Assembly: GCA_015233145.1 (NCBI GenBank)
Contig: JADFYI010000001.1
Coordinates: 15,345 to 79,344 of the forward strand
DNA from: Candidatus Omnitrophota bacterium
GTDB lineage: Bacteria; Omnitrophota; Gorgyraeia; Zapsychrales; Fredricksoniimonadaceae
Direction of reading: 5' to 3'
DNA length: 64,000 nt
The translations under genes were made by a program, and so were the position numbers. This document shows positions 4,026 to 34,072 of the stretch, piece by piece. Every line of letters begins with the position of its first letter. Within the stretch, counting starts at the first letter, position 1. The notes beneath the pieces were generated by a model that saw nothing but the letters and a program-made list of their open reading frames with translations, did not search any database and was not told where the DNA came from.

Positions 4026-4040
4026 TACTTCGAAATTTTT

Positions 4041-4129
4041 GGAGAGATGCCTGAGTGGTTGAAAGGGACGGTCTCGAAAACCGTTATATCGGGTAACCGA
4101 TATCCAGGGTTCGAATCCCTGTCTCTCCG
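4041..4129 (+). tRNA. tRNA-Ser (anticodon CGA), no encoded CCA
   Basis: Manual cloverleaf: acceptor GGAGAGA/TCTCTCC+G, D stem CCT/AGG, anticodon stem ACGGT/ACCGT with loop CT-CGA-AA, long variable arm ATATCGG-GTAA-CCGATAT, T arm CAGGG-TTCGAAT-CCCTG. Confidence 0.92.
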
Positions 4130-6684: not shown

Positions 6685-6845
6685 GAGACATCTGTTTGCC
6701 GTCAAGCTGTAAGCTTGTCGATGCCAACAGATGTCTCCAAAAATTCTGTAGAAAAAGACATTGAGGAAACTCCAGTCTGCCCGTCAAACTGATGGTTTGT
6801 CGTGGCAGACTGGAGTCTCCAAAAATGTCGGAGACATTTTTGGAG
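6685..6845 (+). repeat. two tandem hairpin units plus a tRNA-leader hairpin
   Basis: Unit A has outer stem 6685-6696/6726-6737 (12 bp) and inner stem 6703-6708/6712-6717. Unit B has outer stem 6769-6781/6804-6816 (13 bp) and inner stem 6785-6789/6795-6799. Both contain CCGTCAARCTG and TTGTCG, and both end in GTCTCCAAAAAT. A third hairpin, CTCCAAAAATGTC-GGA-GACATTTTTGGAG (6817-6845), overlaps tRNA nt 1-4. Confidence 0.75.
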
Positions 6846-6929
6846 AGGTGGCTGAGCGGCCGAAAGCGGCGGTCTTGAAAACCGTTGACCCGCAAGGGTC
6901 CGTGAGTTCGAATCTCACCCTCTCCGCCA
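6842..6929 (+). tRNA. tRNA-Ser (anticodon UGA), CCA encoded
   Basis: Acceptor GGAGAGG/CCTCTCC+G+CCA, D stem GCT/AGC, anticodon stem GCGGT/ACCGT with loop CT-TGA-AA, long variable arm, T arm GTGAG-TTCGAAT-CTCAC. Confidence 0.92.
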
Positions 6930-7006
6930 GATTAAAACATCGTTATGTAAATAACGATTTGACATAGAGTTACGATAATCAAGCCGTTATTGCGGAAAAA
7001 GTCTTC

Positions 7007-23763: not shown

Positions 23764-23818
23764 TATATAGTATCCAAAATCATTATTATGATGATTTTTT
23801 GAGAATTTTAGCGTATTG

Positions 23819-23950
23819 GAGAGCCGTCCGGTGCATGTCAGTCGCTCGGACAGTCCTCGTTTCGCTGCCAAGGTTGGAATCATAGTTTTTGATTGTTTGT
23901 GGAGCAGCTCACTGCGGAACTCGCTTGGTGACATGCCCCCTCCGGCTCTC
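23819..23950 (+). repeat. intergenic repeat, copy 1: 100-nt core (23835-23934) inside the stem GAGAGCCG/CGGCTCTC
   Basis: The core is 89/100 identical, without indels, to 31129-31228. The core ends are ATGTCA/TGACAT. Confidence 0.9.
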
Positions 23951-28100: not shown

Positions 28101-28652
28101 ATGAAGAAATATACTATTTCCGTACAACCAACACCTAATCCTAATGCGCTTAAATTTGTTTTAAATGTTCCTTTGAAAGCGCGGGATACGGCTGTTTTTA
28201 AGACCAGAAAAGATGCTGACGCCGTGCCTCTTGCCAAAGCTATTCTCAAACTTGACGGCGTGACCGAGCTTTATTTTAGCGGAAATTTCTTAACAGTGAC
28301 CCAGAACGGCGCAGCAGATTGGGATAAGCTCGAAAAAGAGGTTAAAGACACGGTGTTGAAATTGATGGATGCCCATAACCCTGACTTTGAGCTTTCTTCA
28401 GTGAAAAACGATTCCCCCAAGCCAGGAGGGGAATTGGCCAAGATTAATGAAATCCTTGACCGCACTATTCGTCCAGCGCTCCAGCATGACGGCGGCGATC
28501 TGGAGATTTTATCTTTAGAAGGAAAAACTCTCACGATAAGTTATCAGGGCGCTTGCGGCTGCTGCCCTCATGCGGCCATGGGAACGCTTTACGCGATTCA
28601 AAACATTTTACGCGACCAGTATGATTCTGAAATTCTTATCGAAATGGCCTGA
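28101..28652 (+). CDS. nfu: Nfu-type Fe-S cluster carrier (Nfu N-domain + NifU C-terminal domain)
   Basis: IRPALQHDGGDLEIL...GACGCCPHAAMGT carries the CxxC motif of the NifU C-terminal domain. Confidence 0.85.
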   Translation: MKKYTISVQPTPNPNALKFVLNVPLKARDTAVFKTRKDADAVPLAKAILKLDGVTELYFSGNFLTVTQNGAADWDKLEKEVKDTVLKLMDAHNPDFELSSVKNDSPKPGGELAKINEILDRTIRPALQHDGGDLEILSLEGKTLTISYQGACGCCPHAAMGTLYAIQNILRDQYDSEILIEMA

Positions 28653-28667
28653 TAGGGGCTCTTGGTT

Positions 28668-30122
28668 ATGCCTAAAGAGATTAATAAATCTGTACCAGAA
28701 ACCAGCCTGACCGGCGATTATAAATTCGGTTTTCATGCGGACCTGGAGACTGACAGCGCGCCAAAAGGTTTAAACGAAGACATCATTCGCCTGATTTCCA
28801 GAAAGAAGAATGAGCCTGAGTTTATGGTGGACTGGCGGCTCAAGGCGTATCGCCATTGGCTGACCATGAAAGAGCCACATTGGGCGAACTTTACCTATGG
28901 CCCCATAGATTACCAGGATATCTGTTATTATTCGGCCCCTAAAAAGAAAGGCGACGGCCCCAAAAGCCTGGCTGAGGTGGATAAGGAAGTTGTCCGGACC
29001 TTTGAAAAATTGGGCATCCCTTTAGGCGAGCAAAAGCGTTTGGCAGGGGTTGCCGTGGATGCGGTTTTTGACAGTGTGTCTGTCGGCACGACCCATCAAC
29101 TGGAGCTTGAGAAGGTGGGCATTATTTTTTGTCCGATTTCCGAGGCCCTTCAAAAACATCCTGACCTGGTAAGAAAGTATTTAGGGAGCGTTGTTCCTCC
29201 TACAGACAATTATTTCGCGGCGCTTAATTCCGCGGTTTTTACGGATGGATCATTTTGTTATATCCCCAAGGGCGTGCGTTGCCCCATTGAACTTTCAACT
29301 TATTTTCGCATCAATGCCAAAGACACGGGCCAGTTTGAACGCACGCTGATTGTGGCTGAAGAAGGCTCTTATGTTAATTATCTGGAAGGCTGCACTGCAC
29401 CGGTAAGAGATGAGAACCAGCTGCATGCTGCTGTGGTTGAACTTGTGGCTTTGGATAATGCTGAAATCAAATATTCAACGGTCCAGAACTGGTATTCCGG
29501 CGATAAAGAAGGCAAGGGTGGGATTTATAATTTTGTGACCAAGCGCGGAAAATGTTTGGGCCATAACTCCAAAATTTCATGGACTCAGGTCGAGGCAGGG
29601 AGTGCTATTACCTGGAAATATCCCAGCTGTATTTTGCAGGGCGATCATTCGGTGGGCGAGTTTTATTCCGTGGCCTTGACCAATAATCGCATGCAGGCTG
29701 ATACAGGCACTAAAATGATCCATATCGGCAAAAATACCCGAAGCACCATTATTTCTAAAGGGATTTCTTCCGGGCATGCTAATAACAGTTATCGCGGGCT
29801 TGTGAAAGTTTTGCCGTCAGCGGAAAATGCCAGGAATTTTTCCCAGTGCGATTCCATGCTTGTGGGTAATAATTGCAGCGCCAATACGTTTCCTTATATT
29901 GAGATTGAAAATAACAGCGCCACTATGGAACATGAGGCCACGACATCCAAGATCAGCGAGGAGCAGGTGTTTTATCTTCAGTCGCGCGGCCTGAACAAGG
30001 AAGAAGCCATTTCTTTGGTCATTAACGGGTTCTGCAAGGAAGTATTTAAGGAATTGCCGCTGGAGTTTGCAGTAGAGGCAGTTAAGCTTTTGGAAATGAA
30101 ACTAGAAGGCAGCGTGGGTTAA
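28668..30122 (+). CDS. sufB: Fe-S cluster assembly protein SufB
   Basis: ATG at 28668. [19 protein letters not shown] and [12 protein letters not shown] are SufB signatures. Confidence 0.95.
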
Positions 30123-30140
30123 CTGATTTGCATGATAAGG

Positions 30141-30310
30141 ATGTGATGTTGGCGACTGGAATTTTTCGAGCGGTGTCGGTCGAGTGAGCGGGTATGGTTT
30201 TGTCGTCACTTGAGTGACGACAAAGAGCGAACGAGACCGTCAAGTGCCGGCCGCCACGCTGGGACGGCCAAACGTCCGCGAGAAAAATGTAAGAAGCCAA
30301 CAGATCACAT
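30141..30310 (+). repeat. 170-nt rod-like imperfect palindrome in the sufB-sufC spacer
   Basis: Outer stem ATGTGAT-GTTGGC (30141-30153) pairs with GCCAACAGATCACAT (30296-30310). A second tier pairs TTTTTC..GCGG with CCGC..GAAAAA. The central perfect hairpin is TTGTCGTCAC-TTGA-GTGACGACAA (30200-30223). Confidence 0.8.
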
Positions 30311-30348
30311 TTTAAAGAAAACTTCAGATAGTTTTTAATGGGAATAAT

Positions 30349-31101
30349 ATGCTAAATATTAAAAATTTATACGCGAGTGTTCAGGGCAATCAGATTTTAA
30401 AAGGCGTGTCTCTGGCCGTTAATGCCGGTGAAGTTCATGCGATTATGGGGCCCAATGGCTCCGGGAAAAGCACGCTTTCCAGGGTCGTGACAGGCCATCC
30501 CCAGTATACTGTGGATGGGGGCGTCTTGGAGTATGACATTGGCGGGCAAATGACGAATATTATCGGAAAAGAGCCTGATGAACGCGCGCGGGAAGGCATT
30601 TTCCTGGCTTTTCAATATCCCGTTGAAATTCCCGGGGTTCCGGCCTCTGAGTTTTTAAGGGCTTCTTATAATGCGGTGGGCCGGCACCATGGCCTTGAGG
30701 AAATGGACCCTATTGATTTTGACGTGTTTGTCCGTGAGAAGATGAAGGTCTTGGAAATGGATGACAAATATCTGGACCGTGCCTTGAATGTGGATTTTTC
30801 AGGGGGAGAAAAGAAGCGCAATGAAATTTTACAGATGGCTGTGTTAAACCCGCGCCTGGCACTTTTGGATGAGACAGATTCCGGGCTTGATATTGATTCC
30901 ATGAAAATCGTGGCCCATGGGGTAAATACGCTGCGCAGCAAGCGCAATGCCATGATTGTGATTACGCATTACCAAAGGCTGCTCAATTTTATCAAGCCTG
31001 ATTTTGTGCATATTCTGTATCAGGGAAAAATCATCAAGTCCGGCGGCCCTGATTTGGCCTTAAAGGTTGAAGATAAGGGTTACGATTGGCTTATCAAGTG
31101 A
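30349..31101 (+). CDS. sufC: Fe-S cluster assembly ATPase SufC
   Basis: Walker A GPNGSGKST, ABC signature FSGGEKKR, Walker B LALLDETDSGLD. Confidence 0.96.
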   Translation: MLNIKNLYASVQGNQILKGVSLAVNAGEVHAIMGPNGSGKSTLSRVVTGHPQYTVDGGVLEYDIGGQMTNIIGKEPDERAREGIFLAFQYPVEIPGVPASEFLRASYNAVGRHHGLEEMDPIDFDVFVREKMKVLEMDDKYLDRALNVDFSGGEKKRNEILQMAVLNPRLALLDETDSGLDIDSMKIVAHGVNTLRSKRNAMIVITHYQRLLNFIKPDFVHILYQGKIIKSGGPDLALKVEDKGYDWLIK

Positions 31102-31109
31102 TTAGGCGG

Positions 31110-31246
31110 GCAGGGTGACCTTTGGGACATGTCAGTCGCTCGGACAGTCCTCACTTCGCCGCCAAGTTTGGAATTATAGGTTTTGAATATTTGTGGAGCG
31201 GCTCGTTGCGGAACTCGCTTGGTGACATATCCCAAAGGTTCCCTGC
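31110..31246 (+). repeat. intergenic repeat, copy 2: 100-nt core (31129-31228) inside the stem GCAGGGTGACCTTTGGGA/TCCCAAAGGTTCCCTGC
   Basis: Same core as 23835-23934 and same orientation. The flanking inverted repeat has a different sequence. Confidence 0.9.
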
Positions 31247-31275
31247 TTTCTAAACATATGAGATGAGCTACAGTT

Positions 31276-32388
31276 ATGAATACAGCATTTGATTCAACAC
31301 AACTTTTTAAGAGCCTTTCCCAGGGCCGGGAAGAGAGTTTTAAGGCCCTGGCGGCTTTGCCCTGGCCTAATTTTAAAGACGAGGATTGGAAGTATACAAG
31401 TTTGAATGCCCTGGCGCAGGCATCCTGTGTGCCGTCATCAAAACCTTTTGTCTTTGAAAACTGTCAGAAGTTTCTTACAAACGCGCCGTTGATAAAAGAG
31501 AATGTGAATCCTGGCGGCCTTTTTAAAGCCTTGAATCGTATTTTCTCACCGTCATGCCAGATGATTGATATTCCCCCGGGCCTTGAGGTCAATCTTCCGC
31601 TTAAGATCGTGTACGCGCTTAATGCTTCCGATAACGGCAAGGCCTTTTTCCCTGGGCTTACGATAAGGCTTGGCAAAGGCGCACGGGCCAGGATTTTGCA
31701 AATTTTCTCATCCCGTAACGCCGCGGGAATTTTGATTGATGATGTGAACGATATTATGCTTGAGCCGGAGGCTGAACTTGAGCTGGTCCAGATTTTTCTT
31801 AATGATGCTCAAAGTTTTCAAATTTCGCATACGCATGTCCACCAGAAGAAAGACAGCCGTTTAAGGATGTTCCAATACACTGACGGGGCCAACGTGTTCC
31901 GCAATAATTTAAATGTTGTGTTAGATGCCGAGGGGTCAGAAACGGTTTTAAACGGCTTGCATGACTTAAAAGATATTCGCCAGGCAGACAGCCACACCTT
32001 TGTGGATCATGTGGCGCCCAATGCCAGGAGCAACCAGCTTTATAAGAGCATTTTGGATGGGGAGTCGCGTTCGGTCTTTAACGGAAAGATCCTTGTCCGC
32101 CGGGAAGCCCAGTTGACTAATTCCTACCAGCTTAATAAAAATCTTTTGTTGAGCCGGGATGCCAGGGTGGATACCAAGCCCCAGCTCCAAATTTATGCTG
32201 ATGACGTGAAGTGTTCCCATGGCGCCACGATCGGCCAGCTGGATGATGAACAGCTTTTTTACCTTCAGACCCGGGGAGTCGGTAAAGATGATGCCAGGAA
32301 AATGCTTATCCGGGGCTTTGTGGACGACGTGATTAATCAGGTGAAAGACTTGGGATTAAAAAAGTCTCTTCTTGAAGCCATTTCTTAG
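31276..32388 (+). CDS. sufD: Fe-S cluster assembly protein SufD
   Basis: The beta-helix C-terminal region TKPQLQIYADDVKCSHGATIGQLD is typical of SufD. Position after sufC fits. Confidence 0.9.
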   Translation: MNTAFDSTQLFKSLSQGREESFKALAALPWPNFKDEDWKYTSLNALAQASCVPSSKPFVFENCQKFLTNAPLIKENVNPGGLFKALNRIFSPSCQMIDIPPGLEVNLPLKIVYALNASDNGKAFFPGLTIRLGKGARARILQIFSSRNAAGILIDDVNDIMLEPEAELELVQIFLNDAQSFQISHTHVHQKKDSRLRMFQYTDGANVFRNNLNVVLDAEGSETVLNGLHDLKDIRQADSHTFVDHVAPNARSNQLYKSILDGESRSVFNGKILVRREAQLTNSYQLNKNLLLSRDARVDTKPQLQIYADDVKCSHGATIGQLDDEQLFYLQTRGVGKDDARKMLIRGFVDDVINQVKDLGLKKSLLEAIS

Positions 32389-32399
32389 GAGTTTGACTT

Positions 32400-33620
32400 A
32401 TGCTGGATATTCAGAAAATCAGAGAAGATTTTCCCAATTTACGCGCGCATGGCCGCGATGAAAAGCCGCTGGTGTATTTTGACAACGCCGCGACAACATT
32501 TAAGCCATGCCAGGTTATTTCTTTGACCCATTCCCATTACTGCCAGCGTACGGCTAATATTCACCGCGGCGTGCATTATTTAAGCGAAGTGGCCACAGCC
32601 GAGTATGAATCAACACGCGAGAAATTGCGCCGTTTTTTTAATGCTAAAAGCCTTTACGAGATCATTTTTACCAAAGGCGCCACAGAATCCATTAATCTTG
32701 TGGCCCACAGTTACGGCCGAAAATTTATTAAGGCCGGGGATGAGGTGATCATTTCCGAGATGGAACATCATTCCAATATCGTGCCCTGGCAGATGCTGCG
32801 TGAAGCAACAGGCTGTGTGCTTAAAGTCATCCCCATGAACGATCAAGGCGAGCTTTGCCTGGACGAATTTCAAAAGCTTTTAACGCCGCGCACAAAAATA
32901 CTTTCCATTGTGCATGTTTCCAATTCCCTGGGGACTGTGAATCCTGTCCGGGAAATGATCAAGCAGGCCCATGCCGTGGGTGCTGTGGTGCTTTTGGATG
33001 CGGCGCAGGGGGTTACCTATGAGCCCATTGATGTCCAGGCATGGGATGCGGATTTTCTTGTCATGTCAGGCCACAAGATCTTCGGGCCAACGGGTGTGGG
33101 TGTCCTTTACGGCAAGGAAAAGCTCCTTGAAGCCATGCCTCCGTATCAGGGTGGAGGAGATATGATTTTGAGCGTTACTTTTGATAAAACGATTTATAAC
33201 CGTTTACCGCACAAGTTTGAGGCCGGAACCCCTAATATTGCCGGGGTCATCGGCCTTGGCGCGGCCATTGATTATGTGAGTGCCTTGGGCTGGAAAGACG
33301 TTATGCAGTATAAAAAAGAACTTTTGGCGCACGGCACCAAGGTTTTAAGCGCTGTACCGGGGATAAAGTTTTTTGGCACTGCTAAAAATAAAACAACGAT
33401 TTTCTCTTTTACTATTGGCGACATTCATCCTCATGATTTAGGAACGCTTCTGGACAGGGAAGGGTTTGCCATTCGTACAGGCCATCATTGCACCCAGCCT
33501 GTGATGAAACACTTCGGGATTCCCGCAACGGCCCGGGCGTCACTGGCGTTTTATAACACCAAAGAAGAGCTGGATGCCTTTGCCAAGGCACTTATTAAAG
33601 TCATTGAGGTTTTTCAATGA
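32400..33620 (+). CDS. sufS: cysteine desulfurase SufS (class V aminotransferase group II)
   Basis: SGHKIFGPTG carries the PLP lysine and RTGHHCTQP carries the catalytic Cys loop. Confidence 0.94.
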   Translation: MLDIQKIREDFPNLRAHGRDEKPLVYFDNAATTFKPCQVISLTHSHYCQRTANIHRGVHYLSEVATAEYESTREKLRRFFNAKSLYEIIFTKGATESINLVAHSYGRKFIKAGDEVIISEMEHHSNIVPWQMLREATGCVLKVIPMNDQGELCLDEFQKLLTPRTKILSIVHVSNSLGTVNPVREMIKQAHAVGAVVLLDAAQGVTYEPIDVQAWDADFLVMSGHKIFGPTGVGVLYGKEKLLEAMPPYQGGGDMILSVTFDKTIYNRLPHKFEAGTPNIAGVIGLGAAIDYVSALGWKDVMQYKKELLAHGTKVLSAVPGIKFFGTAKNKTTIFSFTIGDIHPHDLGTLLDREGFAIRTGHHCTQPVMKHFGIPATARASLAFYNTKEELDAFAKALIKVIEVFQ

Positions 33621-34072
33621 GCGAGCATTCTGACGAGCTTTATCAGCAGGTCATTTTAGAGCATAACCGCAAGCCGCGTAATTATGGCAAGCTTGCTCTT
33701 TCTACCCATGAAGCCGAAGGTTATAATCCGTTGTGCGGGGATCATCTGTTTGTCCGCGCGAATGTGAATGCCGAAGGCGTTATTGTGGATGTGGCTTTTG
33801 AAGGCGACGGGTGCGCGATTTCCAAGGCCTCGGCTTCGCTCATGACCGCAGCGGTCAAGGGCAAAAAGGTTGAAGAAGCTAAAATACTTTTTGAAGAGTT
33901 CCGCCGCCTGGTTTTGAAAGAGATTGACCCTGATAAAGACCCCCATCACTTGGGCAAACTTACCGTGTTTTCCGGCATCTGGAAATATCCCTCCCGCGTC
34001 AAATGCGCCATCCTCTCCTGGCACACCCTCAAAGGCGCCTTGGATAAGGAAAAGACAGTTTCTACTGAATAA
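33617..34072 (+). CDS. sufU: SufU / IscU-like zinc-dependent sulfurtransferase-scaffold
   Basis: ATGA overlap with sufS. NPLCGD, GDGCAIS and KYPSRVKCA supply the three conserved Cys. Confidence 0.9.
   Translation: MSEHSDELYQQVILEHNRKPRNYGKLALSTHEAEGYNPLCGDHLFVRANVNAEGVIVDVAFEGDGCAISKASASLMTAAVKGKKVEEAKILFEEFRRLVLKEIDPDKDPHHLGKLTVFSGIWKYPSRVKCAILSWHTLKGALDKEKTVSTE

Follow-up and report, generated by a model that had tools for sequence, protein, structure and literature searches.

A dispersed hairpin repeat with variable arms and an invariant asymmetric junction in the sufC-sufD spacer of an Omnitrophota bacterium

REP sequences shield upstream mRNA from exonucleases and, when they are located near stop codons, can also affect translation of the upstream gene. 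They are palindromes of 20-40 nt that have a conserved stem sequence with a 5' GTAG, that are linked to a RAYT gene and that contain no large non-palindromic core. BIMEs can attenuate transcription, and the pneumococcal BOX elements, which are transcribed and enriched downstream of genes, are built from outer modules that pair around a variable middle (PMC3049150). The ERIC/IRU repeats of Enterobacteria are imperfect palindromes of ~127 nt that lie in intergenic regions and also inside operons, where they are co-transcribed and have an effect on upstream mRNA stability that depends on their orientation (PMC2229807, PMC3049150). Correia repeats (CREE/NEMIS) of Neisseria are hairpin repeats of 100-155 nt that are transcribed with their neighbours and whose long stem is a target of RNase III (PMC2229807, PMC3049150). 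Here we analyzed an element between sufC and sufD in a 64-kb stretch of DNA (64,000 nt, hereafter the window) from a Candidatus Omnitrophota bacterium. Our best reading is that it is a dispersed REP/ERIC/BOX-like repeat that fails the defining tests of each known family.

The window contains, in order, SufB (28662-30122), sufC (30349-31101, plus strand, 250 aa; NCBIfam TIGR01978, 330 bits, and the ORF list), sufD (31276-32388, plus strand, 370 aa; NCBIfam TIGR01981, 257 bits), SufS (32400-33620) and SufU (33617-34072), all of them assigned by NCBIfam. Its SufD is 100% identical to the SufD of a Candidatus Omnitrophica MAG. An earlier sequence-only reading had placed the end of sufC at 31101 and the start of sufD at 31276 with 174 nt between them, which is borne out by the sequence and the ORF list, and the element follows directly upon the sufC stop codon (TGA, 31099-31101). 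Neither a sigma-70-like promoter nor an intrinsic terminator was found between sufC and sufD (31100-31276), and this spacer contains no separate promoter-like site for SufD, SufS and SufU. A polycistronic suf mRNA would thus have to include the element, which supports the earlier claim that any such transcript must carry it.

The neighbouring sufB-sufC spacer (30123-30348) is 226 nt long versus 15 nt and 77 nt in relatives, and it contains a second stem-enclosed structure (~30138-30314) that is unrelated to the sufC-sufD element. Its outer stem is formed by AGGATGTGATGTTGGC and GCCAACAGATCACAT, inside of which is an 11-bp hairpin (GTCGTCACT..AGTGACGAC), and it folds at -84 kcal/mol (z = -5.8). 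An E-value scan of Rfam gave no match to this insert, and no other copy of it is present in the window or in the loci compared. The suf operon of the window thus has two different structured inserts. Note also that in two relatives (L125 and L127) the NifU-like gene and sufB are separated by a gene for an Rrf2-family regulator. In the window (28101-30122) these two genes are just 9 nt apart, indicating that the regulator is missing from this suf operon.

The sufC-sufD copy (copy 2, plus strand) is bounded by two arms that constitute inverted repeat I7. The 5' arm (31110-31134) reads GCAGGG, a TG loop, ACCTTTGGGA, a mismatched C and ATGTCA, and the 3' arm (31223-31246) reads TGACAT, A, TCCCAAAGGT, T and CCCTGC. 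The outer stem has the form that the sequence-only reading had given it, with GCAGGG (31110-31115) paired to CCCTGC (31241-31246), TG opposite T as a 2x1 internal loop, and a second helix of ACCTTTGGGA (31118-31127) with TCCCAAAGGT (31230-31239). Past one C.A mismatch the stem continues as a further helix of ATGTCA with TGACAT (31129-31134 and 31223-31228). Enclosed by the arms is a 5' junction motif, GCTCGGACAGTCCT (31138-31151), that occupies invariant columns in alignments A2 and A3 and forms a closing G-C/C-G pair, a 6-nt bulge (UCGGAC) and AGUCC paired with GGA(A)CU; variants of it elsewhere have the form GCTC-TA/AAA/AGA/GAA-CAGTCC. A variable apical domain that is AT-rich in this genome (31152-31206) then leads to the 3' junction motif TGCGGAACTCGC (31207-31218), which also occupies invariant columns.

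When the region 31100-31280 is folded as RNA, as the sequence-only reading had proposed, a stable rod of -61.0 kcal/mol is obtained relative to -51.0 +/- 4.1 kcal/mol for shuffled sequences (z = -2.46, with 4 of 200 shuffles as good); 31105-31254 folds at -59.1 kcal/mol. The minimum-free-energy fold converts the whole element into an RNA rod from 31102 to 31254 on the plus strand. The outer helix reaches these ends through three G.U pairs, all in its outermost part, and extends this far in the sense strand only. Position 31102 is the nucleotide after the sufC stop codon, and 31254 lies 21 nt short of the sufD start.

Copy 1 of the element (23819-23950, plus strand) lies between miaB (stop 23763) and nadA (start 24023). 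It has arms GAGAGCCG and CGGCTCTC, an inner helix of GCATGTCA with TGACATGC and junction motifs at 23844-23857 and 23913-23924. The claim that the sufC-sufD spacer holds the second copy of one repeat is confirmed by 88% identity over 106 nt between 23834-23939 and 31128-31233, and a 40-mer of the core has 0 matches in 100 shuffles. The flanking stems of the two copies are unrelated in sequence, such that the arm sequence of copy 2 is specific to that copy. The apical helix exhibits one clear compensatory change between the copies, GCTGC/GCAGC in copy 1 versus GCCGC/GCGGC in copy 2, which replaces a U-A pair with a C-G pair. Copy 1 alone does not fold better than its shuffles (z = -0.70). A covariance model (R1) built from 43 members, which are homologues from other organisms, has only two hits in the 64-kb window: copy 2 with 51.5 bits (E = 9e-12) and copy 1 with 43.9 bits (E = 2e-9). 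Between the miaB stop codon and copy 1 there is also an AT-rich hairpin, AAAATCATTATTATGATGATTTT, with a T-run (23776-23808) that resembles a terminator of miaB, in which case copy 1 would be located past it, in the upstream region of nadA.

An exact scan with a 20-mer of the core recovered the same architecture from an Omnitrophota MAG (L002) and a Planctomycetales MAG (L003), both of which have perfect outer stems of 17-18 bp with unrelated sequences. A scan with the two-motif pattern matched at least 120 metagenome loci. As judged by neighbouring proteins, the gut loci are from Collinsella and one further locus (L096) is from a Nannocystis-like myxobacterium, and a 900-kb Collinsella aerofaciens record has 13 BLAST places. 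On these sequence assignments the family spans at least four phyla. Its common plan is a pair of arms of variable sequence (17-45 bp), GCUC-NNA-CAGUCCU, a variable apical hairpin and UGCGGAACUCGC. Proceeding inward, the arm is followed by a small variable internal loop, GC, UCNNAC, AGUCCU and then a short helix with the apical hairpin, and the 3' side returns through UGC, GGA(A)CU(C), GC and the second arm. The apical hairpin may be long or shrunk to a 6-nt loop (L112 1192-1253, L023 3710-3771). The 900-kb record (NZ_OY725717.1; L135-L139) is labelled 'Collinsella aerofaciens plasmid 6'. It holds core chromosomal genes (ribosomal proteins, recA, ftsK, pnp and aminoacyl-tRNA ligases) and behaves like a chromosome segment, not a plasmid.

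Database searches gave no described counterpart. Rfam 15 at gathering thresholds found two tRNAs in the whole window and no match to the element, and Rfam E-value scans of copy 2 and of a Collinsella copy returned only sub-threshold generic long-hairpin hits. The Collinsella-1 motif (RF01700; PMC2864571) is absent from the Rfam scan hits and is a different motif. Literature searches on the motif sequences and on repeats of this description found nothing relevant. Viral contigs gave 0 hits for three core patterns and the window copy had no match in plasmids, and on this basis a phage or plasmid origin was rejected. We discarded three loci (L001, L004 and L116) as chance hits, as their matches are in coding sequence only, and likewise regard a 3'-motif match inside the XerC-like gene of L003 as a chance coding match. 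Another locus with apparent arms of at least 57 bp (L010) was set aside as an assembly artefact: its positions 1-410 are a perfect palindrome with >110 nt on either side of the element, almost certainly from fold-back assembly at the hairpin. Contigs that stop at the element are numerous elsewhere, indicating that the repeat breaks metagenome assemblies. The two tRNA genes of the window (4041-4129 and 6842-6926, in regions 4032-4129 and 6685-6926) are accompanied by short direct and inverted repeats of their own (families D2, D3 and D5; inverted repeats I4, I9, I20 and I21) that are unrelated to the element.

Pairing within the family is maintained through compensatory changes, as is expected of structured cis-acting RNAs in general. 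RNAalifold gave double changes at 18 of 23 pairs. In a set of 59 distinct sequences, 18 of 25 model pairs have double changes, and the covariation score was 0.676 versus 0.164 in shuffles (0 of 500 reach it) and <=0.13 in slid controls. Among these sequences 96.7% of cells are paired versus 69.8% in shuffles, and covariation is observed at 11 of the 11 modelled arm pairs and 7 of the 7 apical pairs. In the same set the GC/GC and AGUCC/GGA(A)CU helices never vary. A rare variant (L023, L081) changes UCC/GGA to UUC/GAA, a double change by which the inner helix is kept. At orthologous Collinsella loci the strains differ in their arms, with every arm pair being self-complementary. Arm diversity is 0.1-0.37, which is like that of other intergenic DNA, and the diversity of the junction motifs is near 0.00.

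The arms themselves do not exhibit a preference for G.U wobble over A.C mismatches. Specifically, G.U pairs account for ~1.6% of arm cells, and the arm mismatches comprise 30 of the G.T type versus 29 of the A.C type. Selection at the RNA level would favour the G.T type, so this symmetry fits maintenance at the DNA level, for example by template switching between the arms of the palindrome. The covariation of arms that are Watson-Crick only is thus weaker evidence for RNA and is no proof of an RNA function. We also observed that the 5' arm is richer in G than in C in 37 of 42 arm types (460 G versus 305 C) and that T likewise exceeds A; because the arms are palindromic, this 5'-arm excess of G and T holds on both strands.

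Several other explanations of the arms were considered and rejected. Arm hypermutation does not apply, as arm diversity is no higher than that of other unconstrained intergenic DNA at the same loci. A role of the arms as guides or spacers was dismissed, given that 11-mers of the window arms match elsewhere in the window no more than by chance and that two arm sequences have no viral matches. Site-specific recombination between copies was suggested by hybrid arms (L079 and L123 relative to L057 and L066, and others), which turned out to be one orthologous locus from different strains. Recombination between alleles, or chimeric assembly of a strain mixture, at the identical core accounts for these hybrid combinations.

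Copies beside stop codons are also biased in orientation. At 16 of 41 distinct loci the 5' arm lies 4-42 nt past the end of a coding ORF in the sense orientation and has no such ORF in antisense; antisense-only adjacency to a stop codon occurs at 0 of 41 and both orientations at 1 of 41. The ORFs behind these counts were called by a simple method with a GC3 filter, and curated annotation or matches to protein families served as a check for only nine copies (three in L135, two each in L136, L137 and the window). In PGAP-annotated C. aerofaciens DNA, sense copies follow the stop codons of tsaD, a hypothetical gene, a glycosyltransferase gene, dut and pnp. Orientation is thus fixed relative to transcription, as it is in cis-acting RNAs. 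About half of the copies next to a stop codon have closely spaced co-directional genes on either side, which makes the sufC-sufD position typical of the family. At convergent gene pairs there are two facing copies, each one sense to its own gene (L034 and L136; L069 likewise), indicating that orientation follows transcription rather than replication. In L034 and L136 a canonical bidirectional terminator is located between the facing copies, which indicates that the element belongs to the 3' UTR rather than being the terminator itself. Some copies lie outside any obvious sense transcript, namely one beside a tRNA promoter (L005) and plus-strand copies upstream of rnj and cstA, and the pnp copy lies after the apparent intrinsic terminator of pnp.

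Facing pairs are a frequent arrangement, with the two copies 55-190 nt apart (L137 2528-2891; L135 7002-7368; L034 5669-6041; L069 562-885 and 4304-4535). In pairs between co-directional genes (pnp to rnj, tsaD to cstA), no sense gene precedes the second copy, which is oriented antisense to the through-transcript. Such a second copy might be a stand-alone unit or an inverted duplication.

Comparison of these properties with the known systems shows where the element departs from each of them. ERIC conserves its whole sequence including terminal inverted repeats and is confined to one bacterial family. The element conserves only an internal asymmetric junction with free arms, is present in at least four phyla and has no sequence similarity to ERIC. 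REP/BIME sequences resemble the element in being extragenic palindromes of 3' UTRs and of spacers between cistrons. Relative to REP, the element has variable arms of 17-45 bp, lacks the GTAG and contains a non-palindromic conserved junction, and no RAYT (IS200/IS605-like Y1) gene was seen in the flanks that were read. Correia repeats are genus-specific and have conserved 26-nt terminal inverted repeats with a TA target duplication, whereas the element has neither conserved ends nor a target duplication, two marks of the classical MITEs (Correia, RUP). In BOX the paired modules boxA and boxC are conserved and the middle varies in copy number, and the element follows the reversed logic. The attC sites of integrons share with it a hairpin whose structure is conserved and whose sequence is variable, a location after stop codons, a fixed orientation and pairing at the DNA level. 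However, attC sites conserve their outer R''/R' boxes (RYYYAAC / GTTRRRY) and occur with accessory genes in cassette arrays beside an integrase, whereas the conserved part of the element is internal, its outer ends are unconserved, its copies follow housekeeping genes scattered over the chromosome (sufC, tsaD, pnp and dut among them), and it has no linked integrase. Finally, the 3' arm of copy 2 is followed by TTTCTAAAC with no U-tract, which distinguishes it from an intrinsic terminator. Given that the element most resembles these co-transcribed hairpin repeats and fails the defining tests of each group, we file it as a variant of the ERIC/Correia/REP/BOX class.

How the element arrived in the suf operon can be approached by comparison with relatives. 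The suf gene order is the same in the nearest available relatives, with 67 nt and 1 nt between sufC and sufD, and the covariance model detects no element in these two gaps. The sequence-only reading had proposed to check related suf operons for presence or absence of the insert, and the element is absent from them, but these relatives are only 53% and 45% identical in SufD, so that the timing of the suf insertion cannot be judged. SufC has 250 aa in the window and in both relatives, and SufD has 370 aa versus 373 aa in the nearest relative, which indicates that neither gene has been cut by the element. With both genes intact and the syntenic operons of relatives lacking the element, it looks as though an insertion is tolerated inside this operon, as had been supposed. 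A second filled and empty site occurs downstream of a DUF711 gene, where C. aerofaciens-type strains have the element and C. tanakaei-type genomes have an ordinary terminator instead. In addition, a minus-strand copy in the Planctomycetales locus L003 (6779-6992), which has the variant motif GCTCAAACAGTCC, holds a plus-strand copy (6822-6948) in its apical loop, indicative of a nested insertion. Together the filled and empty suf and DUF711 sites and this nesting suggest that the element is mobile and that its arms move as one with its core. The nested pair sits just downstream of the XerC-like recombinase gene. A link to IS110 was rejected, as the transposase gene beside the DUF711 gene in L129 is at the locus without the element.

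These observations bear on a reading in which the element is a selfish, MITE/REP-like mobile palindrome that acts at the DNA level and has no suf function. Template switching during replication (quasi-palindrome correction) would keep its arms complementary, the conserved junction would be the recognition site of a mobilising enzyme, and the orientation bias would come from the insertion mechanism or from loss of harmful antisense insertions. The nested copy, the occupied and empty DUF711 sites and the relatives' suf operons without the element all agree with this, as do the multi-copy nature of a repeat at which many contigs break, the Watson-Crick-only arms with symmetric G.T and A.C mismatches, the patchy distribution over four phyla and the orphan copies outside obvious transcripts. 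However, no target-site duplications are present at the arm bases in 32 distinct loci, and there are no conserved ends or conserved terminal inverted repeats, the arms being unrelated even between orthologous loci. No transposase or reverse transcriptase is linked to the element in about 1.4 Mb of flanking DNA, where all neighbours checked are housekeeping genes, and no copy in the loci examined is split by an ORF between the two motifs, as an autonomous version would be. The absence of phage-contig hits, and of a plasmid hit for the window copy, also speaks against it. Furthermore, copies with an invariant junction persist at orthologous loci of diverged strains, and the facing copies at convergent genes have an orientation that tracks transcription and not replication. 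We regard a selfish palindrome of this kind as less probable than the RNA reading set out below, but as the leading alternative to it.

A variant that also starts from mobility is that of a hairpin mobile across phyla that would pass through a single-stranded (RNA or DNA) intermediate, gain its second arm by snap-back priming and be targeted in sense to positions after stop codons. Snap-back priming would explain perfect Watson-Crick arms of arbitrary sequence, the absence of a wobble signature and the G-rich 5' arm. On this variant the junction would be recognised by a universal cellular machine, for example the terminating ribosome or an RNase. Were this so, the element would tag the points where reading frames end in unrelated bacteria. 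We consider this variant improbable.

The occurrence in at least four phyla, the invariant asymmetric junction and the placement always in sense beside a stop codon argue instead for a strand-specific role that is probably exerted at the RNA level, rather than for a purely neutral insertion. The reading that we prefer, to which we assign a probability of roughly 0.45, is that of a dispersed and co-transcribed element that forms an RNA hairpin in intercistronic spacers and 3' UTRs, with the invariant junction docking a conserved factor. Applied to the suf operon, the element would be transcribed within the sufBCDSU mRNA, and its transcript would fold into a ~150-nt rod that starts right after the sufC stop codon. 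This rod may then affect its own mRNA in cis, in the manner of ERIC, Correia and REP/BOX. The long duplex could block 3'-5' exonucleases, could be a substrate of a double-strand-specific RNase, or both. With either a block or a cut, the stabilities of the two segments, sufBC and sufDSU, would become independent of each other. The putative conserved factor would dock at the invariant junction, and arrival at suf would have occurred by a copy-and-insert process that carried the arms together with the core.

A related effect on the operon could be achieved if the element were a factor-dependent or conditional terminator, or an attenuator, that works without a U-tract and sets the subunit ratio by reducing read-through from sufBC into sufDSU. 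The very stable GC-rich hairpin, the sense placement immediately after stop codons and the precedent of BIME elements that can attenuate transcription in operons (PMC3049150) are all compatible with this. However, neither window copy is followed by a U-tract and the sufC-sufD spacer has no terminator-like site, convergent Collinsella genes have their own canonical bidirectional terminator beyond the element, and many copies lie between tightly spaced co-directional genes, essential ones included. Together with the lack of a promoter-like site for SufD, SufS and SufU in the spacer, this makes attenuation very improbable. We give an equally small chance to an mRNA-embedded small-RNA gene, in which a double-strand-specific RNase would cut the arms and free a ~70-110 nt core hairpin with a role in trans (such as RNA component of a ribonucleoprotein or sponge for a protein), since the near-perfect arms of 17-45 bp in the length class of rRNA processing stems, the invariance of the junction across phyla and some copies that could stand alone between a divergent promoter region and a bidirectional terminator are set against an apical domain that is highly variable, down to a 6-nt loop (L112, L023), no conserved promoter and no Rfam family match.

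If the intercistronic and 3'-UTR RNA hairpin reading is true, then an undescribed structured element with a junction conserved at the nucleotide level is present in core-gene 3' UTRs and intercistronic spacers and is at work in Omnitrophota, Planctomycetota, Myxococcota and a common human gut actinobacterium. Such conservation of the junction over several phyla implies that a conserved partner exists for which no one has searched, and the spacers that carry the element are currently blank in genome annotation. Even if the element is selfish DNA, the combination of perfect arms of free sequence around a conserved core with strict placement in sense after stop codons is unusual and of mechanistic interest. 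Collinsella aerofaciens is cultivable and has 13 BLAST places in one 900-kb record, which makes the family directly testable. As an RNA element it would represent a general means of tuning the relative output of genes within an operon, which here would be SufBC versus SufDSU in essential Fe-S assembly.
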